A stretch of DNA of 64,000 bases from Candidatus Avispirillum sp. GTDB lineage: Bacteria; Bacillota; Clostridia; Oscillospirales; CAG-272. Of this stretch, positions 81 to 44,217 are shown piece by piece. The DNA is taken from positions 2,819 to 66,818 of the forward strand of contig JAZORY010000001.1 in assembly GCA_045656825.1 (NCBI GenBank), given 5' to 3'. The position numbers and the translations under genes are program-made. The notes beneath the pieces were generated by a model, which was not told the origin of the DNA, made no database searches, and worked only from the letters and a program-made list of their open reading frames with translations. Each line of letters begins with the position of its first letter. Positions within the stretch are counted from its first letter, which is position 1.

Positions 81-1145
81 TTAGCAGGTCAGGTCAGCGA
101 GAAGAACTGTCATATCCTTGAAGAACTTCTTCTTAGCATCAATGATGCGTCTGATACGAACCTTATCCTCTTCGGGATATTTGTCCATTGCTGTGAAATC
201 GTCCTTGCCCTTATAGATGCGGTCTGCTGTCTGTGCAAGGTTGATATCAAGAGAGATGATTTTGTTGTCTCTTTCGCAGATAACGCGATTTGTCTTGCCG
301 CAGAGAAGTTCCTTAACTGCTTCAGAGCCCATCTTAGCTGCTGTAACTCTGTCTCTGAGGGAGGGGTTACCGCCGCGAACAACGTGAGCAAGGCGAGCAA
401 ATCTTGTTTCGATTCCTGTTTCAGCTTCAACCTTCTTTGCAAACTCTTCAGAAGCGTAGAAGGGGATCATTTCACTAACAACAACGATAAAGCCTCTCTT
501 GCCGTCTGCTCTGAGGTGCTTCATCTTATCATAAAGAGCCTCTTCGTCGAAGGGACGCTCAACGATAACGCAACCAACAGCGCCGCAAGCAATTGCAGAC
601 TGAATAGCGATGCCGCCTGCTTTATTACCCATAACCTCAACAACGTTGCAACGGCCGTGGGATTCGCAAGTGTCGCGAAGCTTATCGATTGCTTCGATAG
701 CTGTGTTCATAGCTGTATCGTAGCCAACAGAATATTCAGAGGAAGCGATGTCGTTATCGATTGTGCAGGGAACGCCGATTGTGGGGATTCCTCTGTTGGA
801 AAGGTCTGTTGCGCCGCGGAAAGTTCCGTCGCCGCCGCATGCAACGATACCGTCAAGCTGGTACTTCTTGCATGTTTCAACTGCCTTTGCCATGCCTTCT
901 TCTGTTTTGAATTCATCGCATCTGTCGGTATAAAGTATTGTTCCGCCGAGGCTTTCAATGCCGGAAACGTCTCTTGCTGTGAGAGGTCTTACCTTGTCAT
1001 TAACAAGGCCGCTGTAGCCGCCCAGAATACCGAAAACCTCTACTCCATAGGAAAGAGCTGTGCGAGTAACGGCGCGGATAGCGCTGTTCATACCGGGGGC
1101 ATCTCCTCCGGATGTGAGAACGCCTATTCTTTTAAGCTGTGCCAT
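81..1145 (-). CDS. pfkA: ATP-dependent 6-phosphofructokinase
   Basis: 354-aa ORF. N-terminal IGVLTSGGDAPGMN and internal GGDGT motifs are typical of the PfkA family. Confidence 0.95.
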   Translation of the reverse strand: MAQLKRIGVLTSGGDAPGMNSAIRAVTRTALSYGVEVFGILGGYSGLVNDKVRPLTARDVSGIESLGGTILYTDRCDEFKTEEGMAKAVETCKKYQLDGIVACGGDGTFRGATDLSNRGIPTIGVPCTIDNDIASSEYSVGYDTAMNTAIEAIDKLRDTCESHGRCNVVEVMGNKAGGIAIQSAIACGAVGCVIVERPFDEEALYDKMKHLRADGKRGFIVVVSEMIPFYASEEFAKKVEAETGIETRFARLAHVVRGGNPSLRDRVTAAKMGSEAVKELLCGKTNRVICERDNKIISLDINLAQTADRIYKGKDDFTAMDKYPEEDKVRIRRIIDAKKKFFKDMTVLLADLTC

Positions 1146-1247
1146 AGTGATCTATCTCCTATTTGTTAACATTATTTGTATGTCAGTTACAGTTATTGTA
1201 CTACCGTTTTATAAAAAAATCAATAGTTTCGCGCAATATCTATACAA

Positions 1248-2189
1248 TCAAAATAAAATATGTCCGAATATGCTGCCGAAAACAACGGAAAATCCGTAAA
1301 CCTCAGCACAAACGAGAAGGTTTTCCTTGAAATTATTATTTGCGCGGAACAAAATGAGAAGTCCGCTTCCTGCGCCTGCAAGCAAAGCTGTCAGCATAAA
1401 GGGGGCGCCGATGATGCCTTCAAGAAAGAGCTCTGTAACAGCAACGGAAACTGCGCAGTTGGGAATAAGACCGATAAGTCCTGCAACAAGGCTTCCGAGC
1501 ACAGGAATATCGGAGAGGGCGCGAAGCGCATCTGCGATATCAAAAAACTCAAGAACGATATTGATCACGAAGGATAGGGCGATTATGAAGCCGAAAACTC
1601 TGAGTGTTCGCACCAGCGCAGAAACGAAGAGGTTTCCCTCTGCTGCGCAAAATCCATCGCCGCAGCCGCAATCACATTCTGCCAGCTCTTCTTCTGTGAT
1701 ATTACCGTCGTTTTCATTATCCATCGTGTGATAATCCTCGGGATATTTGAGCCTGTAATAAAGTCGGATGGAGAAATCAAGCAAAAAACCTGCTGCAATA
1801 GCACTGGCTGCCTTTGCAAGAAGGATCTTCAGGATAGTGCCGAGGGGTGTTTGGCTTGAGATCATAACCGCAAGCATTTCGTCAGAGGTGGAGAGATAAA
1901 CTGAAATAAGAGTTCCTGCTGTTAGTATACCTGCTCCGTATAAATTTGATGCAGCAGCCGAAAAGCCACAGGAGGGAGCTAGTCCAAGCACGCCGCCCAT
2001 AAGTGGGCCGATCTTTCCTGCGCCAACAACAGCGCGGATCATAAAAAGTCCGCCGCCGCGCTCAAGAGCGCCGATAAGCAGGTATGCCAGAAACATAAAG
2101 GGGATTATGAGGACAGTGTCCTCAAGTGCGTGCCCGAGAGCGTGCCATCCGTGGTGGAGGCACGCTTCGAGAAATTCTAATATATTCAT
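1248..2189 (-). CDS. Multi-pass membrane permease, ArsP_2-like (putative 10-TM metal exporter family)
   Basis: 313-aa hydrophobic ORF. The central cytoplasmic loop carries a Cys cluster, CDCGCGDGFC (nt 1647-1676). The family assignment is from memory of the family layout, not a search. Confidence 0.65.
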   Translation of the reverse strand: MNILEFLEACLHHGWHALGHALEDTVLIIPFMFLAYLLIGALERGGGLFMIRAVVGAGKIGPLMGGVLGLAPSCGFSAAASNLYGAGILTAGTLISVYLSTSDEMLAVMISSQTPLGTILKILLAKAASAIAAGFLLDFSIRLYYRLKYPEDYHTMDNENDGNITEEELAECDCGCGDGFCAAEGNLFVSALVRTLRVFGFIIALSFVINIVLEFFDIADALRALSDIPVLGSLVAGLIGLIPNCAVSVAVTELFLEGIIGAPFMLTALLAGAGSGLLILFRANNNFKENLLVCAEVYGFSVVFGSIFGHILF

Positions 2190-2213
2190 CGGGTATTAAA
2201 AATCCTTAACAAT

Positions 2214-3962
2214 TCAATCTTCAATTGCGGCCTTACGTGAAAGGGCTGCATGAACTCTTTCAAGGTTGACCTTGGGGCGTCTGTCGAAGGCAAAAACGCC
2301 GTTCATTTCCTGCATAACGTCTGTGAACTGAGTGTAGCAGAAGCCGCAAACGCCGGGGTTATCAAGGAGTATTGTACAAAGATCGATTAATCTCTGTTCA
2401 AGCTCCTCGGGGCTCTTGGGAGCGTTACCGTATCCCCATGCATTACCTGACTCCTGACCGTCGCTTTCAAGAATTGTGTCTATATCCCAGAAAGCGCCGC
2501 CGAACTCGGAAACGAAATAGGGCATCTTTCCGTTGTAGGGAGCGGAGGGGCCGCCGCCCTCGCCGTTATAGAACACGTCGCCGCCGTCAACGAGTCCCTT
2601 ATAGTGATCGTTGAATTCGTTTTTCTCCTGAACGTAGTCGTGAACATCGAAAATATCTGTTTTTCCCATATGGATCCAACCGGACGTATCGATCACGGGG
2701 CGTGTGGGATCAAACATTTTTGTGATATCGTACACTGTGTCATAGAGGCGGGGTGTGCCGCCGGGCCAGGATTCGTTAAATGCGCACCAGCCGATAATAG
2801 CGGGGCTGTTAATATCGCGGCGGAGGATATCGAGCCATTCGGGAAGCATTGCATTCATAGCCTCGGGGCGCGCAATATCAAGTCCCCAGTTGGGATATTC
2901 ATCCCAGAGGAGATAGCCCATTCTGTCAGCGTGATAGATGAAACGGGGCTCAAACACCTTCATATGCATTCTTGCGCCGTTAAAGCCTGCTGCCATGGAA
3001 AGCTCTATATCGCGAACGAATTCTTCGTCGCTAGTTGCTGTGTAGATACCCTTTTCGTAGTATCCCTGATCAAGAACAAGGCGCATAAACACGCTCTTGC
3101 CGTTGAGCATAAATTTATTGCCGACTATATCAACGCTGCGCATACCAAAATAAGACGTGATCTTATCTTCGCCTGCTGTGATTTCGATATCATAGAGCTC
3201 AGGTGCTCCAACGTTCCAGAGGTGAGGATTGGGGACGGGGAGTGAAAGCGTTGCTGTATTACAAGCGCTGGAAGCCGTAGCCTCGGACACGAACTCGCCC
3301 TTGTAGAATATCTTGGCTGTAACGTCAGCGTTGCCGCCTGCAAGATAAACTGTAAGATCAAGCTTTTCGCCTTTAACGTCAGGGAGCATTTTGATTGAGT
3401 CGATATAAGTGTTAGGAACGTATTCAAGCCAAACTGTCTGCCAGATGCCTGTGCAGCGAGTGTAGAAGCAGCCGTGGTTGGCATATGAGGAGCACTGCTT
3501 GCCTGAGGGCTGAAGGGGGCTTCTCACGTCGTTGCGGCAGGTAACGTTGATTCTGTTTTCGCCTGCCTTCACTTCTTTTGTGATATCAAAGGTTGCGGGA
3601 ACGTATCCGCCCTTATGCTCTCCCATAAAGGCATCGTTTATCCAAACCTGACCCTCATAGTTCATTGCATCGAAATGAAGAAGGATCTTGCCCTTTGCAT
3701 TATCAAAATTTTCAGGCAGAACAAAGCTGCGGCAATACCAGACACGAGTCATAAAATCAACGTTTTCAATGCCTGATGCTTCGCTTTCGGGAACGAATGG
3801 AACGATGATCTCCTTTTCGTAGCGGTCCATTTTATAAAGACCTCTCTGTCCGCCGCTTTCCGCGTTATCTATTTCAAAAAACCATTTTCCGTTAAGATTA
3901 AGCCAGGATTCATCTCCGCGCACAAGCTGAGGACGGGGATATTCAGGTCTCGGTATCATCAT
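2214..3962 (-). CDS. Glycoside hydrolase family 2 (beta-galactosidase/beta-glucuronidase/beta-mannosidase-like)
   Basis: 582-aa ORF. It has the N-terminal sugar-binding region typical of GH2 and a WCAFNESW acid/base-type motif in the TIM-barrel part. Confidence 0.8.
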   Translation of the reverse strand: MMIPRPEYPRPQLVRGDESWLNLNGKWFFEIDNAESGGQRGLYKMDRYEKEIIVPFVPESEASGIENVDFMTRVWYCRSFVLPENFDNAKGKILLHFDAMNYEGQVWINDAFMGEHKGGYVPATFDITKEVKAGENRINVTCRNDVRSPLQPSGKQCSSYANHGCFYTRCTGIWQTVWLEYVPNTYIDSIKMLPDVKGEKLDLTVYLAGGNADVTAKIFYKGEFVSEATASSACNTATLSLPVPNPHLWNVGAPELYDIEITAGEDKITSYFGMRSVDIVGNKFMLNGKSVFMRLVLDQGYYEKGIYTATSDEEFVRDIELSMAAGFNGARMHMKVFEPRFIYHADRMGYLLWDEYPNWGLDIARPEAMNAMLPEWLDILRRDINSPAIIGWCAFNESWPGGTPRLYDTVYDITKMFDPTRPVIDTSGWIHMGKTDIFDVHDYVQEKNEFNDHYKGLVDGGDVFYNGEGGGPSAPYNGKMPYFVSEFGGAFWDIDTILESDGQESGNAWGYGNAPKSPEELEQRLIDLCTILLDNPGVCGFCYTQFTDVMQEMNGVFAFDRRPKVNLERVHAALSRKAAIED

Positions 3963-3973
3963 AGAGAGCTCCT

Positions 3974-4768
3974 TTAGTTTTCAACAATTTTTACTATCTC
4001 GGCAGCCAGACTCTCTGCAAGCTGAGATAGCCATGCGTCGTCTGTCATATTCTTTGCGTCCTGAGGATTTGTGGCATAGCCCATTTCCAAGAGGACTGAG
4101 GGGATCTTTGCGTATTTTGTAACGATATAGGAATCGTCGTATTCGGTTGCATCAAGGAGAAAGTCTCCCTCGAGAGCATTTGATAGATTATCTCCGAAGC
4201 GAACTATGGTATCGCTGCACGGGTTATCCTCGCAATAATAAAGCTCGAAGCCATCAACGTAGGATGCATGCTCGACGCTGTTTACGTGGAGGGAGATAAA
4301 GAAATCTATTCTGGCATCCTTTGTGAGAATCTCCTCGTAGATGCCGCGCTCGTATGCGGAGAAGATGTTGTTTTCCTTTATTCCATCTTCCTTAAGTGTG
4401 ATTCCAAGGCGCTCGGCATCTGCTATAAGCTGAGCCTCCGAGGGATAGGATTCTCCGTCGTGAGTAAGTATAACCTCGGCGCCGAGAGCCTCAAGGCTTG
4501 TTTTCAGCTTTTTGGCTGCCTTCAGAGTAACCTCTTTCTCGTAGCATCCCATAAGATAGGGGCCGCATCCAACGTCGTCAAAGCCGTGGCCTGCATCGAC
4601 GCAGATTATTGTTTTGCCGTCGTTTGTGCGATCAAGCTCAGTTTCTGTCTCTTTATATTCAACGTCCAGATTTATTGAGGGGGTGGTTTCTTCTCCCTCG
4701 ATTTCGATCGGTCTGCAGCCGCAGAGCAAAAGAGACAGGAGGAGAAGTGAGCAAAAGAGTTTTTTCAT
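3974..4768 (-). CDS. N-acetylmuramoyl-L-alanine amidase lipoprotein (Amidase_3 type)
   Basis: Lipoprotein signal ending LLLCGC. VDAGHG zinc-ligand motif. C-terminal EMGY-type motif. Confidence 0.8.
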   Translation of the reverse strand: MKKLFCSLLLLSLLLCGCRPIEIEGEETTPSINLDVEYKETETELDRTNDGKTIICVDAGHGFDDVGCGPYLMGCYEKEVTLKAAKKLKTSLEALGAEVILTHDGESYPSEAQLIADAERLGITLKEDGIKENNIFSAYERGIYEEILTKDARIDFFISLHVNSVEHASYVDGFELYYCEDNPCSDTIVRFGDNLSNALEGDFLLDATEYDDSYIVTKYAKIPSVLLEMGYATNPQDAKNMTDDAWLSQLAESLAAEIVKIVEN

Positions 4769-4784
4769 TATATTTCAGTGATGA

Positions 4785-5513
4785 TCAGTTTTTTCTGATC
4801 GCGAACATTTCCTTTATGATTTCCTTTTCGCCGTAGGCAAGGTCCCAGCTCCAATGATTTACACCGGGATATTCCTTATAGAATATTTTATCTCCGCCTG
4901 CTGCTTTGATAGCTTCAACCATCTCTCTTGTGCCGCCAACGGGAACGATGTCGTCCACTTCGCCGTGGAACGTGAAGATGGGGATGTTCTTAAGAATATC
5001 AACCTTAGAGGGATCGCCTGCGCCGCAGCAGGGGAAGCCGGCTGCGAAGAGCTCGGGATATTTAGCCATTGTATACCAGCTGCCAAAGCCGCCCATGGAG
5101 ATACCCATGATATAAACTCGGCTTTCGTCAACGTTACATTCAGCAATTTTTTCCTTGAGGATAGCAACTGCGCTCTTAACCCAAACGCTTTCTTCAATTT
5201 CGTCCATTTTATAGTTGCCGAGGCCCCAGTCTGTATATACCCATCTTTCCTGCTGGTGCTCGTCCATTTCAACCTGAGGAGCGATAATGAGAGCGTCATG
5301 GAGGGGGCTGTCTGCATCCTTCATAGCAACGTCAAGGCCGATTCGGAGCTGAAGATTGTTGTCAGTGCCTCTTTCGCCTGCGCCGTGAAGGAAAAGAACG
5401 GCGGGGCATTTGCCGTTTTCGTCGCGGTGCTCGGGATAGTGGATTCTGTAAGGAACGGTTTTACCGCATTTATCGTATGTAGCGTATTCGAACGTTTCTG
5501 TGTAATGCTTCAT
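4785..5513 (-). CDS. Alpha/beta-hydrolase esterase (phospholipase/carboxylesterase-like)
   Basis: LFLHGAGERG and GISMGG (GxSxG) motifs. I moved the start to the ATG at 5513, which has AAGGAG 8 nt upstream. The track ORF extends to 5534. Confidence 0.75.
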   Translation of the reverse strand: MKHYTETFEYATYDKCGKTVPYRIHYPEHRDENGKCPAVLFLHGAGERGTDNNLQLRIGLDVAMKDADSPLHDALIIAPQVEMDEHQQERWVYTDWGLGNYKMDEIEESVWVKSAVAILKEKIAECNVDESRVYIMGISMGGFGSWYTMAKYPELFAAGFPCCGAGDPSKVDILKNIPIFTFHGEVDDIVPVGGTREMVEAIKAAGGDKIFYKEYPGVNHWSWDLAYGEKEIIKEMFAIRKN

Positions 5514-5667
5514 GAGTTTTTCTCCTTTTGGCATAATTATTTGGATTCATTGTAACATAATATTTCATTTTTTTCAAGGAGTTAGGTGTAAATATTAATA
5601 GTATGAATAAGGACTTTGTTTTCTGCCGACAATTTGGAAAACTCAAGCGAAAGGACGACGGATTGCT

Positions 5668-6726
5668 ATGAAGAAAAAGATAGTTATCGGAGGGTATTAC
5701 GGCTATGGGAGCCTTGGAGACGAGGCGGTGCTCTCCGTGCTTATAAATGAAATAAAGACAAGATATCCATGCTATGAAATAACGGTGCTTTCAGCCTCTC
5801 CAAACAAAATGAAGCGACTTTTAGGTGTCAGATGCGTTCATCGCTATGACACAGCGGCGCTGATTCGTGAATTATCGCAGGCGGAGCTTTATATAAGCGG
5901 CGGCGGAAGTCTCTTGCAGGATTCAACAAGTATACGAAGCCTGAGATATTATTGTCGAGTGATGCATCTTGCTAAGCATCTGGGAGCCAAGGTTTATGCT
6001 TATGCAAACGGCATAGGGCCCCTTAAGCGAAGTGATATTGCCAGAAGTGCGCTGGATATTTGCGATAAAATAAGCGTCAGAGATGATGCATCCCATTCGA
6101 TTTTGCATGATATGGAAATTGAGTCGGAGCTTTCGGCAGATCCGTTTTTCCTTATTGATGCGGCGGAGGGTAGCGAGGTCAGGCGTTTTCTTTGCGACAA
6201 CGGGATATATGAAAAAAGCTATTTCACCGTTTCCCTCAGAAGATGCAAGGGCAGTCGCCAGATAAACGAGGATTCTCTGCTTCACATTCTCCTGCCTTTT
6301 GTTATAAAGGGGAAAACTCCTTTGTTTATATCCATGCAGGACAGCTGTGATTTTGCGCTGTCAGCCGCTATGGCTGATATTACGGGAGGATACGTAGTAA
6401 CTCCGCCTGATGCCTCAATTCTTTTGGGGCTTCAGAAAAATTCGGAATTTGCCATTGGTATGCGTCTTCATTTTCTTCTTGCTGCGGCTGCAGTGGGAAT
6501 TCCTGTTGTGGCGCTTTCCTATGATCCTAAGGTTGACAACGTGCTGTCATACGTGGCGGGGATTAAGGCGCATGATGCCTTCAGCTTTGATTCCGAGGCG
6601 CTATCACGTGAAACGGAGGCTTGCGGATACAGCATGAAGTCTGAAGCGATGAAAAATCTGGCGCTTCGTGATATTGAGGCAATAGGGGAGCTTCTTTATG
6701 ATGAGGGTGAGCTTGTTAAGGCGTGA
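5668..6726 (+). CDS. csaB: Polysaccharide pyruvyl transferase CsaB-like
   Basis: 352-aa ORF. N-terminal GGYYGYGSLGDEAVL motif is characteristic of the CsaB/pyruvyl transferase family. Confidence 0.75.
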   Translation: MKKKIVIGGYYGYGSLGDEAVLSVLINEIKTRYPCYEITVLSASPNKMKRLLGVRCVHRYDTAALIRELSQAELYISGGGSLLQDSTSIRSLRYYCRVMHLAKHLGAKVYAYANGIGPLKRSDIARSALDICDKISVRDDASHSILHDMEIESELSADPFFLIDAAEGSEVRRFLCDNGIYEKSYFTVSLRRCKGSRQINEDSLLHILLPFVIKGKTPLFISMQDSCDFALSAAMADITGGYVVTPPDASILLGLQKNSEFAIGMRLHFLLAAAAVGIPVVALSYDPKVDNVLSYVAGIKAHDAFSFDSEALSRETEACGYSMKSEAMKNLALRDIEAIGELLYDEGELVKA

Positions 6727-6789
6727 TTGGGGTTGCGGAAAAACGGTAGTTATGGTAAAATAATATCAACTGATTTGAACGGAGATATT

Positions 6790-8319
6790 ATGGACTACAA
6801 AGTTATTGACAGCTGTGAATGGACCTATCCTGACAGGTGGGATTATGCTTCGGAGGCGAAGTGCTACAAGGGATATGCTCTTGTTGGCAGCTATGCAACC
6901 TTCAGGGTTATTGTCAGAGACTTTTCAGGGGTACTGGAGGTTTATGCCGATGGTGCTGATATATACGAAGAGGTGGCGATTCCCGTTGAAGACAATCCCA
7001 ATTTTGAAAACGGATTTATGCCTCATTTCCCCGAGAGGACTGCGCCGTTTTCTGTGTACGATTGCCTCAAGCCGTGCTGTGGTAAAATAGAGAAGAAGCA
7101 CGACGTAACCTCGATTTATTTTGCATACAAAACAGATGGAGAGGGCGTTTTTCGCGAAATATTACTAAAAAGCGATGATTGCGAAATAAAGGTTCCCGTT
7201 GAAATAATTTCAAAGGGAAAGCTTCCTGAGGAAACTCTCAAAATCGCTATGGGATATTGCATAAGTGAGGTTATGAACAAGCACGGGCTTGATTTCCGAA
7301 GTGATGAATTTGCTCAGGTTGATCGCAAATATCTTGAGATGCTTCGCAAGATGCATCAGAACAGATATTTTCTTGATCCCGTTCATTCGTGGAAAAAGGA
7401 TGGAGAATGGCATTTTGACTTCCGCGGCTTTAACCGACGGGTGAAACAGCTTCTTGAGCTTGGATTTAACGGCTTTCACATTAACGGAATCGGTTTCCGA
7501 CGCGCTTGGGATGCGCCTGAAATCATTATTCGCGGAATGGATGCTCTTTCCTATGAATGTTATGATTATCTGAGAAAATATCTGCCTGCACTCAGGGAAA
7601 ACCTCCGCGAAAACGGATGGCTTGAAAATGATCTTTTCTGCATTGGTATTGCAGATGAGCCCAACAGATTTAACGCGCTGACGTACAGGGCGGTTGCTTG
7701 TATGGTCAGACGTTATCTGCCTGAAATCAAGATCTACGATGCGGTGTCATACGTTCCCGTTTACGGCGCAATTGATATATGGGTGCCTCGCGCAGACGAA
7801 TTTGAGAAAAACCGAGAGGCTTTTGAAAACTTCAAGGAGGATGGCGACGAGGTCTGGCATTACGTTTGTCTGTTCCCGCGCGTTGACGGATATATCAATC
7901 GCTTTATGGATATTCCGCTTCTTGCAACCAGATATCTTTACTGGGCGAATTACGCTTATGATCTGTCAGGCTATCTGCACTGGTCCGTCAACAACTATCA
8001 GGGTGATCTTGATCCTTACGAGGCTAGCTGCCCCGGTCATGTGAATGCGGGCAGCCGCAGTGTGCTTCCTGCGGGTGATGACAAGCTTTTATATCCCGGT
8101 GTGAATGAGCCTTATATGTCAGCTCGCTTTGAAATGCATCGAGAATCAGCTGAGGACTATGAAATGCTGCGCGCGATCGCTCTTCACAACAAGCCTCTCG
8201 CTGATGAAATATGTGCTTCCTGCTTCAGAAGCTTTACTGACGTTGAATTCGATCCTCTGAAATTCCGCGCCGCTCACAATCGTTTGATTTGTGAATACGC
8301 CGCTCTAAGTGATAATTAA
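6790..8319 (+). CDS. DUF4091 domain protein (GH123-like fold family)
   Basis: The track ORF 6727-8319 starts at TTG. An in-frame ATG at 6790 has GGAG 5 nt upstream. The conserved C-terminal block (YLYWANYAYDLSGYLHWSVNNY) resembles DUF4091 proteins. Confidence 0.6.
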   Translation: MDYKVIDSCEWTYPDRWDYASEAKCYKGYALVGSYATFRVIVRDFSGVLEVYADGADIYEEVAIPVEDNPNFENGFMPHFPERTAPFSVYDCLKPCCGKIEKKHDVTSIYFAYKTDGEGVFREILLKSDDCEIKVPVEIISKGKLPEETLKIAMGYCISEVMNKHGLDFRSDEFAQVDRKYLEMLRKMHQNRYFLDPVHSWKKDGEWHFDFRGFNRRVKQLLELGFNGFHINGIGFRRAWDAPEIIIRGMDALSYECYDYLRKYLPALRENLRENGWLENDLFCIGIADEPNRFNALTYRAVACMVRRYLPEIKIYDAVSYVPVYGAIDIWVPRADEFEKNREAFENFKEDGDEVWHYVCLFPRVDGYINRFMDIPLLATRYLYWANYAYDLSGYLHWSVNNYQGDLDPYEASCPGHVNAGSRSVLPAGDDKLLYPGVNEPYMSARFEMHRESAEDYEMLRAIALHNKPLADEICASCFRSFTDVEFDPLKFRAAHNRLICEYAALSDN

Positions 8320-8567
8320 AACTCCACCCTGCTGACAAAGTAAATCTGTAAGAATATCCAAGGGGAAACTTTTTGAGGAAAAGTTTTCCCCCTGGACCCC
8401 CTTCAAAACCTTTTCGCAGAAAATCCCCGTCCATCCCCACAAAAGTGGGGTGGGACGGGGATCTTTTACAAAGAGGTTTGGGGGAGGGTTCGGGAGGAGA
8501 CCTTTCCTTAAAAGGTCCCTCCTGAGTATCCTTATAAACTAGCTTTGTCAGCAGGGTGGAGTTTTAA
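8316..8567. repeat. 252-bp nested imperfect palindrome with perfect 25-bp terminal inverted repeats (MITE-like or long structured element)
   Basis: TTAAAACTCCACCCTGCTGACAAAG (8316-8340) is the exact reverse complement of 8543-8567. Interior local hairpins lie at about 8362-8391 and 8493-8522. The central hairpin is CCCCGTCCATCCCCAC-AAAA-GTGGGGTGGGACGGGG (8425-8460). Confidence 0.85.
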
Positions 8568-8570
8568 CTA

Positions 8571-9368
8571 TTATTCAGAGAGGAGAACTCTGTCGCTAGC
8601 CAGTTCTTCGCCTGCGGAGATCTTGAATTTTTCAAGAAGATCAGCCTTAGTGAGCTTTTTCTTTTCTTCGCCACTAACGTCGAAAACGATGCGACCGTTG
8701 CTCATCATAATGAGGCGGTTGCCGTACTTGATGGCGTCATTCATATTATGAGTGATCATAAGGGTTGTGAGGTTATTTTCCTCAACGATTTTAGCGGAGA
8801 GAGTGAGCACCTTAAGAGCTGTTTTGGGGTCAAGAGCTGCGGTGTGTTCGTCAAGGAGCAGAAGCTTAGGGTTGTTCATGGTAGCCATAAGCAGAGTAAG
8901 CGCCTGACGCTGACCGCCGGAGAGAAGACCGACCTTGGACGTGAGTCTGTCCTCGAGTCCCAGATCAAGAGTTTTGAGCAGCTCGCGATAGCTTTCGCGC
9001 TCGGCCTTGGAGATACCTGTTTTAAGGCCTCTTGCCTTGCCGCGACGAGCAGCGAGAGCGAGATTTTCTTCGATCTGCATAGTAGCCGCAGTGCCTGTCA
9101 TGGGATCCTGGAAAACGCGGCCGATGTACTGAGCTCTCTTGTGCTCGGGAAGCTTTGTAACGTCAACGCCGTCAATGGTGATAGCGCCGCTGTCAACGGG
9201 ATAAACGCCTGCAACCATATTGAGCATAGTGGATTTACCTGCACCGTTGCCGCCGATAACGGTTACAAAATCGCCCTTGTTAAGATGGAGATTGAGATTT
9301 TTAAGAACTCTTTTTTCGTTAACGGTTCCTACGTTAAACGACTTATAAACCTTGCTGATATCAAGCAT
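8571..9368 (-). CDS. ABC transporter ATP-binding protein
   Basis: Walker A GGNGAGKST, signature LSGGQRQ, Walker B LLLLDE. Confidence 0.9.
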   Translation of the reverse strand: MLDISKVYKSFNVGTVNEKRVLKNLNLHLNKGDFVTVIGGNGAGKSTMLNMVAGVYPVDSGAITIDGVDVTKLPEHKRAQYIGRVFQDPMTGTAATMQIEENLALAARRGKARGLKTGISKAERESYRELLKTLDLGLEDRLTSKVGLLSGGQRQALTLLMATMNNPKLLLLDEHTAALDPKTALKVLTLSAKIVEENNLTTLMITHNMNDAIKYGNRLIMMSNGRIVFDVSGEEKKKLTKADLLEKFKISAGEELASDRVLLSE

Positions 9369-10305
9369 TTTCTTCTGCCTCCTCTTCTGTGATCTTCACG
9401 GGCTTAGCAAAATACTTGCTCTTCAGATGAGGAACTGCCAGGAATACTGCAACGACAGCAGCTGAGAGCAGCTTGAGAAGGTTTGCATCAAGACCGATAG
9501 TGATAACAACCTGAACAACTATGTAGTAGATAACGGCTCCGAGAGAAACGGAAACAAGGCGGAGCGCAAAGTTTTTGAAGATCTTGCCGAAAACAGCCTC
9601 GCCTATAATAACGGAGGCAAGACCGATAACGATAGCGCCACGGCCCATATTAACGTCAGCAAATCCCTGATACTGAGCGAGCAGAGCGCCGCTTGTTGCA
9701 ACAAGTGCGTTTGCTATCATAATACCGAGAACCTTATTTCTGTCTGTGTTGATACCAAGGGCGCGGCTCATTGCAAGGTTGGAGCCTGTTGCGCGGATGC
9801 TGCATCCCATTTCAGTTCCGAAGAACCAATAGAATATAGCAACGAGCACGATAGTGATAAGAGCAACTGTCAGAAGAGGGTTGTTGAGAGCAAGCTTTTT
9901 AACCCAGCGGAGAGAAACCAGCAGATCGTATTTGTCAACGTTAATAGACTGGTTGGACTTGCCTATGATCTTCAGGTTTACGGAATACAGCGCAAGCTGA
10001 GTGAGAATACCTGAGAGGATGGCGGGGATTCCGAGAGTTGTATGCAGGAAGCCTGTAACGAGACCGCAGAGCATACCGGCAATAAATGCCATAAGAAGAG
10101 CAAGCCAAACGTTCCAGCCTGCAAGCATGAGCATGATGCAAACGGCGCCGCCTGTGGCAAAGGAGCCGTCGACTGTAAGGTCGGAAACGTCAAGGATTCG
10201 ATAGGTCATATAAAGACCGATAGCCATGATGCCCCAGATGAGACCCTGAGCGCATGCGCCGGGGAGCGCGCCGGGGATCTTGGCAAGAACTGAGAGTAAT
10301 TCCAT
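9361..10305 (-). CDS. ABC transporter permease (BPD_transp_2-like)
   Basis: 314-aa polytopic membrane ORF. It overlaps the ATPase gene start by 8 nt and sits in an operon with binding proteins. Confidence 0.85.
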   Translation of the reverse strand: MELLSVLAKIPGALPGACAQGLIWGIMAIGLYMTYRILDVSDLTVDGSFATGGAVCIMLMLAGWNVWLALLMAFIAGMLCGLVTGFLHTTLGIPAILSGILTQLALYSVNLKIIGKSNQSINVDKYDLLVSLRWVKKLALNNPLLTVALITIVLVAIFYWFFGTEMGCSIRATGSNLAMSRALGINTDRNKVLGIMIANALVATSGALLAQYQGFADVNMGRGAIVIGLASVIIGEAVFGKIFKNFALRLVSVSLGAVIYYIVVQVVITIGLDANLLKLLSAAVVAVFLAVPHLKSKYFAKPVKITEEEAEENA

Positions 10306-10341
10306 TTTTGAGTTTTAGTCCTTTCTTTTGCGAGTGGGTGC

Positions 10342-11292
10342 TTAGTTTATAGGCTCGTATCCGTCGGGAACGGAAAGTCCGAGCTCTTCAGCCAGATCTT
10401 TGTTGTATTTCTTTGTGGCTTTTGCATATTCAATAGGCATTTCTGAAACGGATGCTTCGCCGCGAAGGATCTTCGCAGCCATTTTGCCCGTTGCATATCC
10501 CATATCATAATAGCTGATGGAAAGAGAGGCAACGCCGCATGCTGTTCCCTCTTCGCCTGCGATAACGGGCTTCTTCAAGGGGCGGCAGATATTGTCTATA
10601 ATTCCTGCATTGCTTGCAACCGTGTTGTCTGTGGGAACATAAATGGCATCGTTTTCCTCAGCCGCTTCCTGACAAACTGCTGCAAGGTCGTTTGAGTCGG
10701 CGAAGGGATAAAGATGAGCATCAACTCCCATTTTCTCAAGCTCGTTGTATACAACGTTTACCTGATACTGAGAGTTTGCTTCAGCTGAGCAATAGATAAG
10801 AGCAACGTCCTTTGCATCGGGAACCCATTCGAGAATCATTTTTGCCTGTTCATCGAGTGGAGCCAGATCGCTTGTGCCGGAAACGTTTGTGCCGACTGTG
10901 CCGTTAAAATCGTTTATGTCAAGAGCAACGCCGTATTCGGTGATAGACGTGCCGAGAATGGGAATTTCGTTTGTTGCGGATGCTGCCGTCTGCAAAACAG
11001 CGGTTGCATTTGCAAGGATCAGATCAACATCGTTTGAAACAAACTGATTTATGATGGAGGAGCAGGTGGAGATATCGTTCTGGGCGCTCTGGATATCATA
11101 GTGGATGTTTTTTTCACCAAGCTCTTCGCTCAAGGCATCCATAAATCCCTTTGTTGCCTGATCATGTGCGGAATGGTCAACGAGCTGGCAGATTCCTATC
11201 TCGTATTCAGCCGTCGAGGTGTTGCATCCTGCGAGGGTGAAAACGATCATAGCTGCCAACAGCAGTGAAAATAGTCTTGCGGCTTTTTTCAT
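10342..11292 (-). CDS. ABC transporter substrate-binding lipoprotein (ABC_sub_bind type), paralog 1
   Basis: Lipobox LAGC. It aligns end-to-end with the neighbouring paralog. Confidence 0.85.
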   Translation of the reverse strand: MKKAARLFSLLLAAMIVFTLAGCNTSTAEYEIGICQLVDHSAHDQATKGFMDALSEELGEKNIHYDIQSAQNDISTCSSIINQFVSNDVDLILANATAVLQTAASATNEIPILGTSITEYGVALDINDFNGTVGTNVSGTSDLAPLDEQAKMILEWVPDAKDVALIYCSAEANSQYQVNVVYNELEKMGVDAHLYPFADSNDLAAVCQEAAEENDAIYVPTDNTVASNAGIIDNICRPLKKPVIAGEEGTACGVASLSISYYDMGYATGKMAAKILRGEASVSEMPIEYAKATKKYNKDLAEELGLSVPDGYEPIN

Positions 11293-11345
11293 AATAGAAA
11301 TCCTTTCGTATGGAAGGTTAAATATGAAGATATCAATATTATAGC

Positions 11346-11384
11346 AAAAATCGGGTGAGAATGAAAGGTGCTCACCCGATTTTG
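11346..11384 (-). terminator. Intrinsic terminator between the two binding-protein genes
   Basis: On the minus strand the sequence reads AAAATCGGGTGAG-loop-CTCACCCGATTTTT. Confidence 0.75.
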
Positions 11385-11419
11385 TTTATGCTTTTTATGT
11401 TTTTTTCGAATTTTGTTGA

Positions 11420-12388
11420 TTATTCAGCCTCGATTGCAACGTATCCTTCAACGGGAGTGATGCCGAGAGCCTTGCAGATTTCTGCGTTGTACTTCTTTGT
11501 AACGTCTGTGTATTCGATCTTCATATCAGCGATATCAGCTTCGCCGCGGAGGATCTTAGCTGCCATTTCGCCTGTTGTCTTGCCAAGGTCGTAGTAGCTG
11601 ATGGAAAGTGTTGCAACGCCTGCGCCCTTGCAGATGCCTTCTTCGCCTGCAATAACGGGCTTGCCGAGAGGACGGCAGATGTTGTCGATGATACCTGTGT
11701 TATCAGCAACAGCGTTGTCTGTGGGAACGTAGATAACGTCGTTTTCGTTTGCAGCAGTTGTGCAAACAGCGGAGATATCGTTGGAGTCAGCGAAGGGATA
11801 GAGAGTTGCTTCAATGTTCTTTGCTTCGAGATACTTCTTAACCTCGTCAACCTGATACTTGGAGTTTGCTTCAGCGGAGCAGTATACAAGAGCAACCTTC
11901 TTAGCGTTGGGGAACCATTCGCTGATCATATCAGCCTGCTTGTCAAGAGGAGCAAGGTCGCTTGTTCCGGAGATGTTGCCGCCAACTGTGCCATCGAAGT
12001 TTTCGATTTCAAGAGCAACGCCGTATTCTGTAACGGACGTGCCGAGAATCGGAATTTCGTTTGTTGCTGCTGCTGCTGCCTGAAGAGCAGGAGTTGCATT
12101 TGCAAGAATGAGGTCTACGCTGTCAGAAACGAACTGGTTGCAGATTGTGGAGCATGTGTTGGAGTCGCCCTGAGCGCTCTGATAGTTGAAAGTAACGTTT
12201 TCTTCGCCGAGAGCTTCAACGAGAGCATCCTTAAAGCCCTGTGTTGCAGCATCGAGAGCAACGTGCTCTGTGAGCTGGCAGATACCGATAACGTACTTGC
12301 CGTCGTCTTCGGAAGCATCACAACCAACGAACATTGTGAGCATCATAACAGCGGCGAGCATAAGTGCTAAAAGCTTGAGAGTTTTCAT
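11420..12388 (-). CDS. ABC transporter substrate-binding lipoprotein (ABC_sub_bind type), paralog 2
   Basis: I set the start at the ATG at 12388 (MKTLKLLALML...FVGC lipobox), which has a GGAAAC-rich Shine-Dalgarno sequence. The track ORF extends to 12478. Confidence 0.85.
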   Translation of the reverse strand: MKTLKLLALMLAAVMMLTMFVGCDASEDDGKYVIGICQLTEHVALDAATQGFKDALVEALGEENVTFNYQSAQGDSNTCSTICNQFVSDSVDLILANATPALQAAAAATNEIPILGTSVTEYGVALEIENFDGTVGGNISGTSDLAPLDKQADMISEWFPNAKKVALVYCSAEANSKYQVDEVKKYLEAKNIEATLYPFADSNDISAVCTTAANENDVIYVPTDNAVADNTGIIDNICRPLGKPVIAGEEGICKGAGVATLSISYYDLGKTTGEMAAKILRGEADIADMKIEYTDVTKKYNAEICKALGITPVEGYVAIEAE

Positions 12389-12505
12389 AATGTTTCCTTT
12401 CTTTCCCACCCGGGACCAATGCGATTGTCCTATTGGGAACAGACCTTTGTCCGTAAATTTTTGCTTTAACACTTTCACGCGTTAAAACGCAAAAAAGATG
12501 TTACT

Positions 12506-40045: not shown

Positions 40046-41329
40046 TTAAGCTTTTTTACGAGCTGCCTTTTTGGCATCAACCTTAGCTTTTTCTATTTTG
40101 TAGATTTCTTCAGTTGCAAGGGAAAGCTTTGTAACAACGTTTTCCTTTGTGGGATAGCAATAGAAGGAGTCGTTGTCGGTGGAAATATCAATACAGTCCA
40201 GAGGCTTGATATAGCAATAGTCGTATTCAATGTGAACGCCGTACATACCAAGAGGCTTGCGCTCGATCTTGTAGGGCTCGCCTCTGTATTCTCCCTCGAG
40301 AACAAATCCGTTTTCTGCATCGTGTGTCAGCTTTGCCTCTCCCAGATGCTCAAAACGCATGCAGCGGGGCAGGGAATGAACGTCAACCGTGTCGGAGAAG
40401 GAATATTCTCCGCGCTCAATCTCCTCGCGAACCATTTTTCTCTGCCATTCATACCAATCGGGAATATGAGAAAACTCAGTTTCGCCTTCCTTGGCGCAAA
40501 GTCTGCCAAGCTCATCCATTTCCCAGCGTTTGCCACATTCTTTGCAGAACAGCTCTGTTCCTTCTGATGCCATTTTATGCTCTGCTTTGCAGTTAGGGCA
40601 CTGATAGAGAACCTTATGAAGTCCTTCTGCGCGGAAAGGCTCTGTGATTTTTATATTGTTTTCAAGCTGCCACTTGTATTCGTCGTAGGTGAGAGCCTTT
40701 GTAACAACCTCGTTTATTTCTTCGTATGACATTTTTTCAACGTCCTCAGCTGTGAGAACCTGAGTCATAGTTGTGTAAAGCGGCACCTTTCGGGGCTTGC
40801 GATAGTTCCAGAAGGGTGTGTGCAGATAGTTCCCGTGGTGTAGAAGAACAACGACGGGAACGCCTGAGCGCTTAAGAAGCATACCGAGGGATTCGGGCAG
40901 GATTGCCGTTGTTCCCACAGGGGAATATCTTGCCTCGGGATACATACAAAGCACGTCGCCGTTTTTCTTCAGAACGTGGCGGATGGAACGAAGAAGGTGC
41001 ATATCCGTTGTGAATTTTCTTTTGCAGATACAGCCAAGCAGCTCCATAATGATGGGGCGGCGGTAGTATCCGTCGATGGTGGCAACGTTGTTGACTCTGT
41101 GGGGGAAGGTTGCCATAGCGGAAAGCTGGAAGTCAACGAAATACATATGGTTGCTCAGCAGTATGTATGGGGGCTTCAGCCCTTCCATATTGAATTTTTC
41201 TATTTTATAGGGAACCTTGGGCATTCCCAGCTTACTTACGAGAGTGAGCAGACCCATCATAAAAAGGGGCTGTCTTATAGGGAGCTTGGCGGTGTTATAG
41301 GGCTTTTTGTTTTTGTAATTAACGTCCAT
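40046..41329 (-). CDS. Lysophospholipid (PlsC-type) acyltransferase with internal zinc ribbon
   Basis: NHMYFVD (HxxxxD) acyltransferase motif. CPNC...CKEC ribbon. I set the start at the ATG at 41329; the track ORF extends to 41386. Confidence 0.7.
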   Translation of the reverse strand: MDVNYKNKKPYNTAKLPIRQPLFMMGLLTLVSKLGMPKVPYKIEKFNMEGLKPPYILLSNHMYFVDFQLSAMATFPHRVNNVATIDGYYRRPIIMELLGCICKRKFTTDMHLLRSIRHVLKKNGDVLCMYPEARYSPVGTTAILPESLGMLLKRSGVPVVVLLHHGNYLHTPFWNYRKPRKVPLYTTMTQVLTAEDVEKMSYEEINEVVTKALTYDEYKWQLENNIKITEPFRAEGLHKVLYQCPNCKAEHKMASEGTELFCKECGKRWEMDELGRLCAKEGETEFSHIPDWYEWQRKMVREEIERGEYSFSDTVDVHSLPRCMRFEHLGEAKLTHDAENGFVLEGEYRGEPYKIERKPLGMYGVHIEYDYCYIKPLDCIDISTDNDSFYCYPTKENVVTKLSLATEEIYKIEKAKVDAKKAARKKA

Positions 41330-41406
41330 AATCAATACCTCACTTATACTAAATATCAGTATAATACATTTTCCATATTTATGCAAGGCAAAGGTGGAGA
41401 ATCGTG

Positions 41407-41435
41407 TTGAAAAAAGCAGCTTATTGTGCTAAAAT
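41407..41435 (+). promoter_or_regulatory. Sigma-A promoter upstream of the EamA transporter gene
   Basis: TTGAAA (41407-41412), a 17-nt spacer ending in TGC, then TAAAAT (41430-41435). Confidence 0.6.
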
Positions 41436-41462
41436 GAAGCATCATATGTTATGAGGATCTCT

Positions 41463-42326
41463 ATGAAAGAAAAGTCTAATAAAAATATAGCTATCTTAAA
41501 AATAGCCTTGGCGATGTTCATTTTTGGTACTATTGGTATTTTTGTGCGCCACGTGTCGCTCCCGTCGGGCTTTATTGCATTTTTTCGCGGAATTCTGGGA
41601 ACCGTGTTCCTTCTTGCCGTGATGCTTTTGTCTCGTAAGAAAATCTCATTTTCTGCAATAAAAAAGAATCTTTGGCTTCTCATATTATCCGGCGCCTTTA
41701 TCGGCATCAACTGGATACTTCTTTTTGAGGCTTATCGCTATACAACTGTTGCAACTGCAACGCTTTTCTATTATCTTTCGCCTATTTTTGTAATAATGGC
41801 GTCGCCTGTTGTGCTGAAGGAAAAGCTCACACCTAAAAAGATGATTTGTATTATTTGTGCCCTGATTGGTATTGTTTTTGTATCAGGTGTGGCTGAAAAC
41901 GGAATCGTCGGTGGGCGCGGTATGCTTCTCGGATGCGGAGCAGCTGTTTTTTATGCAACGGTTGTGCTTCTTAACAAGAAGATGCATGATATTTCCGCTT
42001 ATGATATGACGATAGTTCAGCTTTTCTTTGCCGCTGTTACGATCTTGCCATACACTCTTTTGACGGAGGATATCAGAGCCGAATCCTTCACGCCTAAAGC
42101 TATAATAGTTCTCGTTATTCTGGGTATTGTTCACACGGGCCTTGCCTATGCTCTCTATTTTGCTTCCGTTAAGATGCTTCCTGCACAAACGGCTGCAATT
42201 TTCAGCTATATCGACCCCGTTGTTTCAATAATTCTTTCGGCGGTCTTGCTTTCGGAGCCGCTTACCTGGTTTGGAATAATAGGTGCAATTCTTATTCTCG
42301 GGTCAACGTTTACAGCATCAAAATAA
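41463..42326 (+). CDS. EamA/DMT-family transporter
   Basis: About 10 TM segments arranged as two EamA halves. Confidence 0.85.
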   Translation: MKEKSNKNIAILKIALAMFIFGTIGIFVRHVSLPSGFIAFFRGILGTVFLLAVMLLSRKKISFSAIKKNLWLLILSGAFIGINWILLFEAYRYTTVATATLFYYLSPIFVIMASPVVLKEKLTPKKMICIICALIGIVFVSGVAENGIVGGRGMLLGCGAAVFYATVVLLNKKMHDISAYDMTIVQLFFAAVTILPYTLLTEDIRAESFTPKAIIVLVILGIVHTGLAYALYFASVKMLPAQTAAIFSYIDPVVSIILSAVLLSEPLTWFGIIGAILILGSTFTASK

Positions 42327-42365
42327 ATTAAAAAAGCTTACGTTTTTTAACGTAAGCTTTTTTGC

Positions 42366-44199: not shown

Positions 44200-44217
44200 A
44201 ATAATAGACCTGCTTTC

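Follow-up and report, generated by a model that had tools for sequence, protein, structure and literature searches.

The GH123 gene and the ABC transporter operon that converge in the 64-kb stretch of DNA analysed here (the window) are separated by a long palindrome with perfect ends, and the question raised by the locus is whether such a structure represents an elaborate terminator, a mobile element bounded by transposase-recognised termini, or a repeat of another kind. The parts of the locus to which the answer refers are as follows, with the strand given for the genes.

6727-8319, + strand: GH123 / DUF4091 gene (Pfam PF13320, E = 1e-38), convergent with the ABC operon
8293-8315: imperfect outward extension of the inverted repeat within the last GH123 codons, with its partner (8568-8590) in the 3' end of the ABC ATPase gene
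8316-8340: left outer arm, a locus-specific inverted repeat that carries the GH123 TAA stop; not a family terminus
8341-8542: conserved core of the repeat family, about 200 bp, with its A end toward GH123 and its B end toward the ABC gene
8543-8567: right outer arm, locus-specific, ending 3 nt short of the ABC ATPase stop codon (8571-8573)
8571-9368, - strand: ATPase of an ABC transporter and final gene of the SBP-SBP-permease-ATPase operon

Geometry and folding of the palindrome

The perfect 25-bp termini reported in the preliminary description of this DNA were recovered, 8316-8340 being the exact reverse complement of 8543-8567 with 0 mismatches; the arm 25-mer TTAAAACTCCACCCTGCTGACAAAG stands at 8316-8340 (+) and at 8543-8567 (-), and no further occurrence with up to 3 mismatches was found in the 64 kb, with 0 matches in 100 shuffles. 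The nested imperfect palindrome described inside the arms was borne out by both the inverted-repeat scan and the folding. The scan pairs 8293-8373 with 8510-8590 (81 nt, 75% complementary) and 8372-8440 with 8445-8513 (69 nt, 72% complementary), and also reports a local hairpin at 8357-8396. On the + strand a 272-nt stretch has a folding energy of -157 kcal/mol (z = -14.2), on the - strand one of -158.6 kcal/mol (z = -16.7), no shuffle being as stable in either case, and the outer stem with three arms that had been proposed is present in the minimum-energy structure of the - strand. The following parts are distinguished within the core.

8362-8391: side hairpin module A, GGGGAAACTTTT-TGAGG-AAAAGTTTTCCCC, a 12-bp stem with one bulged base
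8420-8467: central GC-rich hairpin, with its stem-loop at 8425-8460, bordered by AAAA and, at the opposite edge, by ATCTTTT
8433-8452: tip of the central hairpin (20 nt), enclosed by CCCCGTCC and GGACGGGG, found in both orientations among copies
8492-8522: side hairpin module B, GGGAGGAGACCTTTCC-TTAA-AAGGTCCCTCC

Module B is an inverted relative of module A, about 70% similar and of the same bulged-hairpin shape, and among the module variants five of the seven upper-stem pairs are changed on both sides, which is a compensatory pattern, the test being partly circular because the module variants were picked for being hairpins. The central hairpin has the sequence given for it previously, i.e. 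CCCCGTCCATCCCCAC (8425-8440), the AAAA loop (8441-8444) and GTGGGGTGGGACGGGG (8445-8460); its stem comprises 6+8 bp interrupted by a 2x2 internal loop. As DNA the hairpin folds at -19.6 kcal/mol (z = -6.2). Transcripts arriving from either side would form a side hairpin first and the central hairpin last, followed by the U-rich tail AUCUUUUAC or AUUUUCUGC. The U tract is short (4-5 U), and a simple consensus terminator scan made no call; judged from its sequence, the central hairpin looks like a bidirectional intrinsic terminator, rightly placed at convergent 3' ends. The promoter scan of the interior found none. The best Rfam match at permissive thresholds was a generic miRNA hairpin model (31 bits against a threshold of 140 bits), plasmid and phage collections contained no BLAST match to the element, and the pattern search, the inverted-repeat scan and the nhmmer profile agreed with the earlier observation that the 64 kb contain no second copy.

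The TAA stop of the DUF4091 gene (8317-8319) lies inside the left arm, as had been noted, with the ORF ending at 8319; the start of the database protein P0001 (509 aa, 100% identical) is placed 21 codons after the TTG at 6727. The element does abut both genes, the gap between the right arm and the ABC ATPase ORF being 3 nt.

Copies of the core, their sites and their orientation

The interior recurs at other loci and in other genomes, and the element is thus not a one-off terminator. Two MAGs of Candidatus Avispirillum and two of ruminant Clostridia have interior copies that are 88-97% identical at other loci; the core matches at this level the copies L002/L013, L020, L001/L010, L011, L012, L014 and L023, and a fragment of it was found at L016. 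Four of the loci are non-orthologous (L014 and L020, both in JAZQUP, L011 and L012), while the orthologous GH123/ABC loci L001, L002 and L023, which were reached by way of homologs, also bear the core. Besides the one copy in the 64-kb window, the strict pattern returned at least three copies in the MAG JAZQUP and at least two in JAZQVW, these counts being lower bounds because the search pattern demands the central hairpin, by which the sampling of the family is also biased. Within the reach of the scan, the family does not extend beyond Candidatus Avispirillum and a few gut Clostridia related to it. Of the 17 genome-scan matches, ten (Nitrospinota, Streptomyces and others) were rejected as chance matches to the degenerate central pattern, and the single match of the invariant 20-mer in a metagenome scan (L022) was likewise judged to be chance; two viral scans gave no match, and the six-frame translation of the core, compared with a protein database for spurious ORFs over other copies, returned nothing.

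At unrelated loci the similarity drops sharply outside the core. At least four of the five independent loci (the window lineage, L020, L014 and L012) lie between convergent genes, and at these four the element fills the intergenic gap from stop to stop, the interior of about 200 bp being an uncatalogued small repeat at the usual place of a two-way transcription terminator. In L023 and L016 the contig ends in the middle of the palindrome; contig breaks are typical at repeats and hairpins. The larger element of L029 has a nested look, as if an element made of A and B modules enclosed other DNA at its centre.

An unoccupied counterpart of one of these sites is present in the window itself.

42327-42365: empty site of the same repeat family, a 39-nt gap between convergent EamA and PrmC-like genes

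The neighbours of this site are EamA (41451-42326, +) and the PrmC-like gene (42366-43232, -), and it holds a plain bidirectional terminator, AAAAAAGCTTACGTT-TTTT-AACGTAAGCTTTTTT, which scores as such. In L020, which was aligned on both sides (854-3130 with 40066-42330, and 3402-8000 with 42382-46980), the same gene pair is separated by 259 nt of arm, core and arm. The insertion polymorphism for which the preliminary description had proposed to look is therefore found, L020 being filled and 42327-42365 empty, and the single copy with neither homologs nor polymorphism, on which it would have accepted no more than an elaborate bidirectional terminator, is contradicted by the dispersed copies and by this filled/empty site. 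It is the only such pair found, and its flanks are 75-80% identical, because of which the insertion junction and the pre-insertion sequence cannot be read. As to the GH123/ABC locus, L001, L002 and L023 are filled and L003, L004, L024, L027, L029, L031 and L035 have another synteny; the search among relatives gave no close empty site for this locus and no exact pre-insertion sequence. All four species examined there are filled (4/4), whereas the 64-kb window has many terminators without the element.

The arms behave differently from the core. Between orthologous loci the arms are 54-76% identical against 87-96% for the interior, and the between-species identity of the core (87-95.5%) may be compared with 54-72% at third-codon positions in the genes on either side. 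In the centre, about 160 nt are near-invariant over seven copies, loops included; conservation peaks at the centre and falls toward the ends, the outer 17 nt or so at each end being variable, and fixed element ends could not be defined from the copies. The two arms within one locus are 80-86% alike against the 54-76% between orthologs, and the comparison of different loci revealed no common arm sequence, each arm being unique to its own locus. The score of flank inverted repeats beyond the core is 22-28 in the window lineage and 33.5 in L020, against a null of 5.9 +/- 1.1; these repeats are long and clear at two of the five independent loci and weak at L011, L014 and L012. The flank direct-repeat scores of 4-6.5 are at the null level (5.4-6.0), against 22-33 for the inverted ones, and no direct target-site duplication was thus detected. 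The TTAA at the arm ends is absent from the L002 ortholog, which has AATAATAC... there, and although several copies have a TA dinucleotide, read by eye, where core and flank join, nothing follows from it, TA being self-complementary. Taken by sequence comparison, the 25-bp arms appear to be local flanks that are not part of the mobile unit.

The arms run into the final codons of both flanking genes, and neither the GH123 tail nor the ATPase tail is like that of the outgroups. GH123 ends in ...AALSDN* in the window and in ...ALSDN*/ALDNI*/ALSDK*/SLSNNL* among the element-bearing genomes, against ...AKYC*/AKWC* (...KYC*/KWC*) in the element-free relatives, and the ABC ATPase ends in ...LLSE* in the window and in ...LLS* in those orthologs that lack the W-type element. 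In L001 and L002 the repeat extends over the terminal 3-4 codons of GH123; it is perfect over 21 nt in L001 and has 1 mismatch over 22 nt in L002. The long ABC ATPase matches P0121, P0122 and P0124, considered as read-through into the element, were rejected as chimeras with internal duplications.

The orientation is likewise variable. With respect to the flanking genes, L002 and L023 have the core in the orientation opposite to that of the window, whereas L001 differs from the window by a flip of the tip only; in the A/B frame the 20-nt tip has one orientation in three copies and the other in three (flipped in 3/6), and these flips occur between 8-bp repeats.

Origin of the arms and competing explanations

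The reading preferred here, to which a probability of about 0.6 is assigned, is that of a low-copy, dispersed, non-autonomous REPIN/MITE-like core with a bidirectional terminator-like hairpin, the locus-specific arms of which were formed, or are kept alike, through template switching or recombination. The mobile conserved unit would be the core of about 200 bp, i.e. the modules A and B, inverted, around the central hairpin with its A and T tracts. It would settle at gene 3' ends, mostly those of convergent pairs, where the empty site has a plain bidirectional terminator, and a bias toward convergent gene pairs is known for REP elements (PMC3184786). Insertion there would be harmless or useful, because the central hairpin would halt and stabilise both incoming transcripts. 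The strong core hairpin would further lead the nascent strand to fold back and to copy the opposite flank, in one direction or the other, presumably by template switching or recombination within the palindrome; a single template-switch event suffices to generate perfect hairpin arms (PMC10710096), and such switching has been put forward as the process that maintains the perfection of inverted repeats in bacteria (PMC5941160). The palindrome would grow outward until coding constraint halts its growth, with a few terminal codons being rewritten; the arms of one locus would stay more alike than orthologous arms between species, and the segments between paired arms, the entire core as well as the 20-nt tip, would flip. 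The Pfam scan of the 64 kb found no transposase, recombinase or RAYT domain among the 54 window ORFs, so that it is the distribution of the copies that argues for mobility; a spread of the core in trans by a hairpin-recognising single-strand transposase of the IS200/IS605 TnpA or RAYT type is only a guess. Going further, and with the odds against it, one may tentatively suppose that the cassette of about 160-200 bp actively turns its own flanks into inverted duplicates, at insertion or later by fold-back template switching that starts from its hairpin, and in this way grows its outer stem, replaces the resident terminator, rewrites the stop codons and last residues of its neighbours and flips freely.

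Several other explanations of the same structure have to be weighed against this reading. Apex-targeted insertion, in which the arms would be a pre-existing hairpin, such as a bidirectional terminator, and the core would enter the hairpin loop in a structure-specific manner, as IS1397 enters REP loops, is unlikely, although several points favour it: the base of the outer stem looks terminator-like both in the window (AAAACTCCACCC...GGGTGGAGTTTT) and in L002 (AATACCCCC...GGGGGTATT), the empty site is a centred hairpin terminator, the L029 element likewise seems to hold other DNA inside an A/B-module element, and old arms around a young core, in either orientation per locus, would be accounted for. 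However, arms of 33 perfect bp (L020) or about 45 bp (window lineage) are far beyond natural terminator stems, those of L020, L012 and L014 have no GC-rich stem with U tracts, and the arms reach into coding sequence, the GH123 tail being derived. Repeated independent insertions of this kind are also unlikely, since all four species are filled at the GH123/ABC locus while many window terminators are empty. An immobile functional element seems improbable. Its conserved centre would serve as a structured RNA or as a binding platform for proteins, for example as a terminator, a nucleoid-protein site or a stabiliser of the 3'-UTR; purifying selection would maintain it, and rare duplication or recombination, not transposition, would spread it. 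The near-invariance of about 160 nt, loops included, with neutral sites near saturation, fits this view, as do the pairing kept in the hairpin modules through compensatory changes and the window free of mobility genes and target duplications; the near-invariant centre across species could indeed reflect a sequence-specific function instead of recent spread. It accords poorly with copies at unrelated loci in several species, whose similarity is lost sharply outside the core, with the filled/empty polymorphism, with operation in either orientation relative to the genes, and with an element that has no Rfam match above threshold and no promoter of its own.

The two readings in which the arms are recognised by an enzyme fare worse. 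An inverton, with the flanking inverted repeats as recombinase sites and an interior flipping to regulate the neighbours, is suggested by the typical geometry of 25-bp inverted repeats around about 200 bp and by the opposite orientation in L002 and L023, yet is highly improbable: the interior has no promoter-like site, the 64 kb contain no recombinase, and the element stands between gene 3' ends. Flipping would moreover alter little, because the interior is itself quasi-palindromic and both strands fold equally well; the same interior occurs at unrelated loci, unlike that of invertons, and the tip flip between 8-bp repeats points to a generic hairpin process. The classical TIR-MITE favoured by the preliminary description, with the 25-bp termini as selected transposase sites and a TA or TTAA target duplication, can scarcely be maintained. 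The termini in the window are perfect and begin and end in TTAA, and the dispersed copies and the insertion polymorphism uphold that part of the MITE comparison; the 25-mer is nevertheless missing from every other copy, the arms differ per locus and orthologous arms diverge faster than the interior, the conservation of which peaks centrally, and L002 is without the TTAA, as all flanks are without direct repeats. Shared TIRs and a target duplication have accordingly to be given up.

Relation to known small repeats

Among known systems the family resembles REPINs and REP-BIMEs, which also consist of two inverted GC-rich hairpin modules with a spacer and form local hairpins or one long hairpin, and which are extragenic and non-coding, lie at gene 3' ends with a convergent bias and show compensatory stem changes (PMC3116915, PMC3184786). 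The inverted modules A and B, the spacer and the long hairpin (-157 kcal/mol) are all found here. However, the element is about 200 bp in size, whereas the conserved ends of REPINs are about 71 bp apart (PMC3116915). REPINs have invariant ends and a looser spacer, an arrangement that does not hold here, where the spacer is as invariant as the modules and the ends are least conserved. REPINs number tens to hundreds per genome, while the present element appears low-copy (1 per 64 kb), and they are mobilised by RAYT transposases encoded by a single-copy gene flanked by repeats, whereas the window has no RAYT; the host, an uncultured member of Clostridia, differs too. We know of no described REPIN feature that corresponds to the locus-specific inverted flanks, and small palindromic repeats, to our knowledge well studied in Proteobacteria and a few pathogens, have hardly been studied in uncultured gut Clostridia.

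SPRITE and bcr1 are likewise small dispersed repeats of Firmicutes, SPRITE with a terminator-like hairpin and bcr1 with a cruciform of independent stem-loops (PMC3184786). A relationship in sequence is not to be expected, and by their description the present element is larger and fully palindromic, has locus-specific inverted flanks and flips its interior between orthologous loci. The TIR-MITEs Correia, RUP and ERIC resemble it in being non-autonomous, 100-300 bp long and intergenic, with long hairpins and the ability to alter gene 3' ends; dispersed copies and presence/absence are found here as well, but conserved, shared TIRs and a fixed direct target duplication are not, and conservation peaks centrally. 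As for invertons, both orientations are seen between species, while neither an orientation-dependent signal in the interior nor an invertase in the 64 kb was found.

The family is unusual in combining a near-invariant non-coding centre, locus-specific inverted flanks that run into coding ends, and recurrent flips of the interior and the tip. If the cassette does turn its own flanks into inverted duplicates, it would constitute a repeat family marked by inverted flank duplication with a centre-out conservation gradient; an inverted, and not direct, flank duplication with such a gradient has, as far as we know, not been described for bacterial MITEs or REPINs. In practical terms, the element breaks metagenome contigs at its own centre, and its orientation is unusable as a phylogenetic character. 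If the flanks do arise by template switching, the family would be a natural repeat that reshapes gene 3' ends and terminators, and a convenient system to measure palindrome-driven mutation in genomes. The likeness to template-switch (quasipalindrome) mutation lies in the perfect arms made or corrected in one step, the concerted arms and the recurrent inversions between short inverted repeats (PMC10710096, PMC5941160); that, however, is a general mutational process, whereas here a particular dispersed repeat would both nucleate it and be its substrate.

The palindrome and its genomic setting

The element at 8316-8567 lies between the convergent GH123/DUF4091 and ABC ATPase genes, whose stop codons (8317-8319 and 8571-8573) bound the gap, and its 25-nt arms, 8316-8340 and 8543-8567, are exact reverse complements, all as in the preliminary description. 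The imperfect nested palindrome reported for its interior was likewise confirmed by complementary arms and three hairpins:

outer inverted arms, 8293-8373 and 8510-8590, 75% complementary
inner inverted arms, 8372-8440 and 8445-8513, 72% complementary
local side hairpin (module A), 8362-8391
local side hairpin (module B), 8492-8522
central hairpin, 8425-8460

The fold energy of either strand is about -157 to -159 kcal/mol, 14-17 SD under that of shuffled sequence. The 25-mer arm has no further occurrence in the window at up to 3 mismatches (0 matches in 100 shuffles), while Rfam gave no family at threshold for the element, and the plasmid and phage collections contained no sequence resembling it. 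The region is of housekeeping character (glycogen operon, parAB, serS, cysS, infB, mreBCD), with no transposase or recombinase among the 54 window ORFs. The mechanical GH123 ORF begins at TTG 6727, right after the pyruvyl transferase ORF stop at 6726; the true start is probably 21 codons downstream, past 6727-6789, since the identical database protein has 509 aa.

The GH123/ABC junction is a synteny breakpoint. The window has the order GH123, element, ABC operon (reverse strand), glgB, whereas in the contig loci L003 and L024 from other MAGs glgB directly follows GH123 and the ABC operon is absent from that position; the operon (8571-12478) is a reverse insertion between GH123 and glgB in the window's clade. 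The three nucleoside hydrolase genes following the ATPase in the related loci L029 and L031 suggest a nucleoside-uptake operon.

Conservation and copies of the core

In the related MAGs reached via GH123 homologs, two loci of Candidatus Avispirillum, L001 and L002, encode a GH123 protein 82-83% identical to that of the window and keep the same convergent pair, with a gap of equal size filled with a homologous palindrome, and a fourth relative with the palindrome, L023, is cut by the contig end exactly at the palindrome centre. The L002 interior matches the window better in reverse than forward (86% vs 69% over the whole gap; about 96% over the core as reverse complement), which places the L002 core in the opposite orientation to the window's with respect to the shared flanking genes. 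The L001 core keeps the window's orientation, but the 20-nt tip of its central hairpin is flipped. At these orthologous loci the non-coding core is 87-95.5% identical, against 54-72% at third-codon positions of the flanking genes.

The search for copies was extended by one scan of species-representative genomes, for which the conserved central hairpin served as pattern, so that the family was sampled through a pattern requiring this hairpin. The core proved to be present at further loci beyond the orthologous site, with 88-97% identity to that of the window:

L014 and L020, core copies at two additional loci of the L001 genome
L016, core fragment at a contig start, L002 genome
L011, core copy, ruminant Clostridia MAG
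L012, core copy with a 47-nt internal insertion, another ruminant Clostridia MAG

About 160 nt (GGAGGGACC...GTTTCCCC) are almost invariant in seven copies after normalisation of tip orientation, about 17 nt per side are semi-conserved, and similarity ends beyond; thus, conservation is maximal at the centre and falls outward. The near-invariance may mean that the core spread recently, that its copies undergo gene conversion, or that it has a sequence-specific function. One metagenome scan for the element returned no genuine match. Two metagenome contigs end at or near the palindrome centre (L023 end, 4207; L016 start, 1), which suggests that the element breaks short-read assemblies. The GC-rich insertion of L012 (6331-6375, GTGAACCCCCAAAGCTCGACAAGCTCGCTTCGGGGAACCCCGGCA) separates the B module from the central hairpin and has no second occurrence among the window and compared contigs. 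L014 also carries, between two co-directional genes, a solitary A-like hairpin (6162-6214, GGGGAAACCCTTTTAGAGAAAAGGGTTATCCTC; weak module-profile match, E = 0.008).

An empty site was found in the window at 42327-42365, where a 39-nt gap between convergent EamA and PrmC-like genes holds a perfect bidirectional intrinsic terminator (AAAAAAGCTTACGTT-TTTT-AACGTAAGCTTTTTT). L020 aligns with the window on both sides of the element and carries an arm-core-arm stretch of 259 nt between the same genes, the exact insertion junction being unreadable because the flanks are only 75-80% identical.

Origin of the perfect arms

The preliminary description read the perfect 25-bp termini as selected, transposase-recognised TIRs of a MITE-like element. 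This is contradicted by the arms, which are unique per locus and, at the GH123/ABC locus, the most diverged part (54-76% identical between orthologs, whereas the two arms inside one genome are 80-86% alike), and by the central peak of conservation. The arm sequences do not occur beyond their own loci among the window and compared contigs. The inverted repeat flanking the core differs in sequence from locus to locus: it comprises 25 perfect bp in the window and 33 in L020, and is shorter and imperfect in L011, L012 and L014. When the core boundary is set conservatively, L020 and the window lineage reach inverted-flank scores of 22-33, against a null of 5.9 +/- 1.1, and the scores at the other three loci are weak; direct-repeat scores of the flanks, the check for target-site duplications, are at null level.

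In the window lineage the inverted repeat extends into the coding ends, and the perfect 21-mer of L001 and the 22-mer of L002 (one mismatch) span the final three to four codons of GH123. The GH123 C-termini with the element read ...ALSDN*, ALDNI*, ALSDK* or SLSNNL*, and those of more distant element-free relatives ...KYC* or KWC*; the ATPase ends LLSE* in the window vs LLS* in orthologs without the window-type element. The long ABC ATPase homologs P0121, P0122, P0124 and P0141 in the database (311-384 aa) owe their length to internal duplications of ATPase sequence and probably represent chimeras, produced by assembly or gene calling on short contigs, rather than read-through into the element.

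The main rival explanation, that a hairpin already in place received the core at its apex, is favoured by the terminator-like look of the outer-stem base at the GH123/ABC locus; however, arms of 33-45 bp and the coding sequence inside them fit it poorly. Concerted yet locus-unique arms, together with the flipping core and tip, are the outcome expected of template switching or recombination within the palindrome (PMC10710096, PMC5941160), from which the perfect 25-mers would most likely derive.

Hairpin modules, related repeats and likely function

A larger composite relative of about 420 bp (L029, 4796-5215) immediately follows the stop codon of the ABC ATPase gene. Hairpin modules resembling A and B form its ends (nhmmer E = 1.7e-8 for that resembling B), whereas its centre of about 270 nt differs from the family core, being a 43-nt, 98% inverted repeat (4913-4955/5063-5105) that encloses three unrelated hairpins. 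A promoter-like TTGACA-N18-TATAAT follows the element upstream of the nucleoside hydrolase genes. Among closer relatives of this locus, L031 has no element at the site (gap 62 nt), and L035 and L036 have a plain terminator. Downstream of the orthologous ATPase gene, L036 carries two GC-hairpin-rich direct repeats of about 150 nt (~3000-3480, GGGTACAACGT.CGATTTATCGTAGGGGCGTCACTGTGTGCGCCC...) and a solitary B-like hairpin (3660-3700, TTGAGGGGACTTTTCCGGGGCAAGTCCCCCTCAA); GC-rich hairpin repeats of several families thus seem to be present in these genomes. The gap downstream of the element-free GH123 ortholog in L027 contains a 17-nt unit (GTGGATCATCCCACGC.) in four tandem copies (~4690-4760).

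The side modules retain their hairpins by compensatory changes, which affect both sides of 5/7 upper-stem pairs, with 92% of cells paired and 0/500 shuffles as good, in a test that is partly circular, as the module variants were picked for being hairpins. Judging by the sequence, a transcript incoming from either side would meet a side hairpin, then the central GC-rich hairpin, then AUCUUUUAC or AUUUUCUGC, and the central hairpin is a putative terminator. It was not called by a simple terminator scan, and a promoter scan gave no promoter-like site in the interior. In the window lineage, L020, L014 and L012 the element fills the gap between convergent ORFs. Taken together, the findings fit a REPIN/MITE-like dispersed palindromic cassette at terminator positions.
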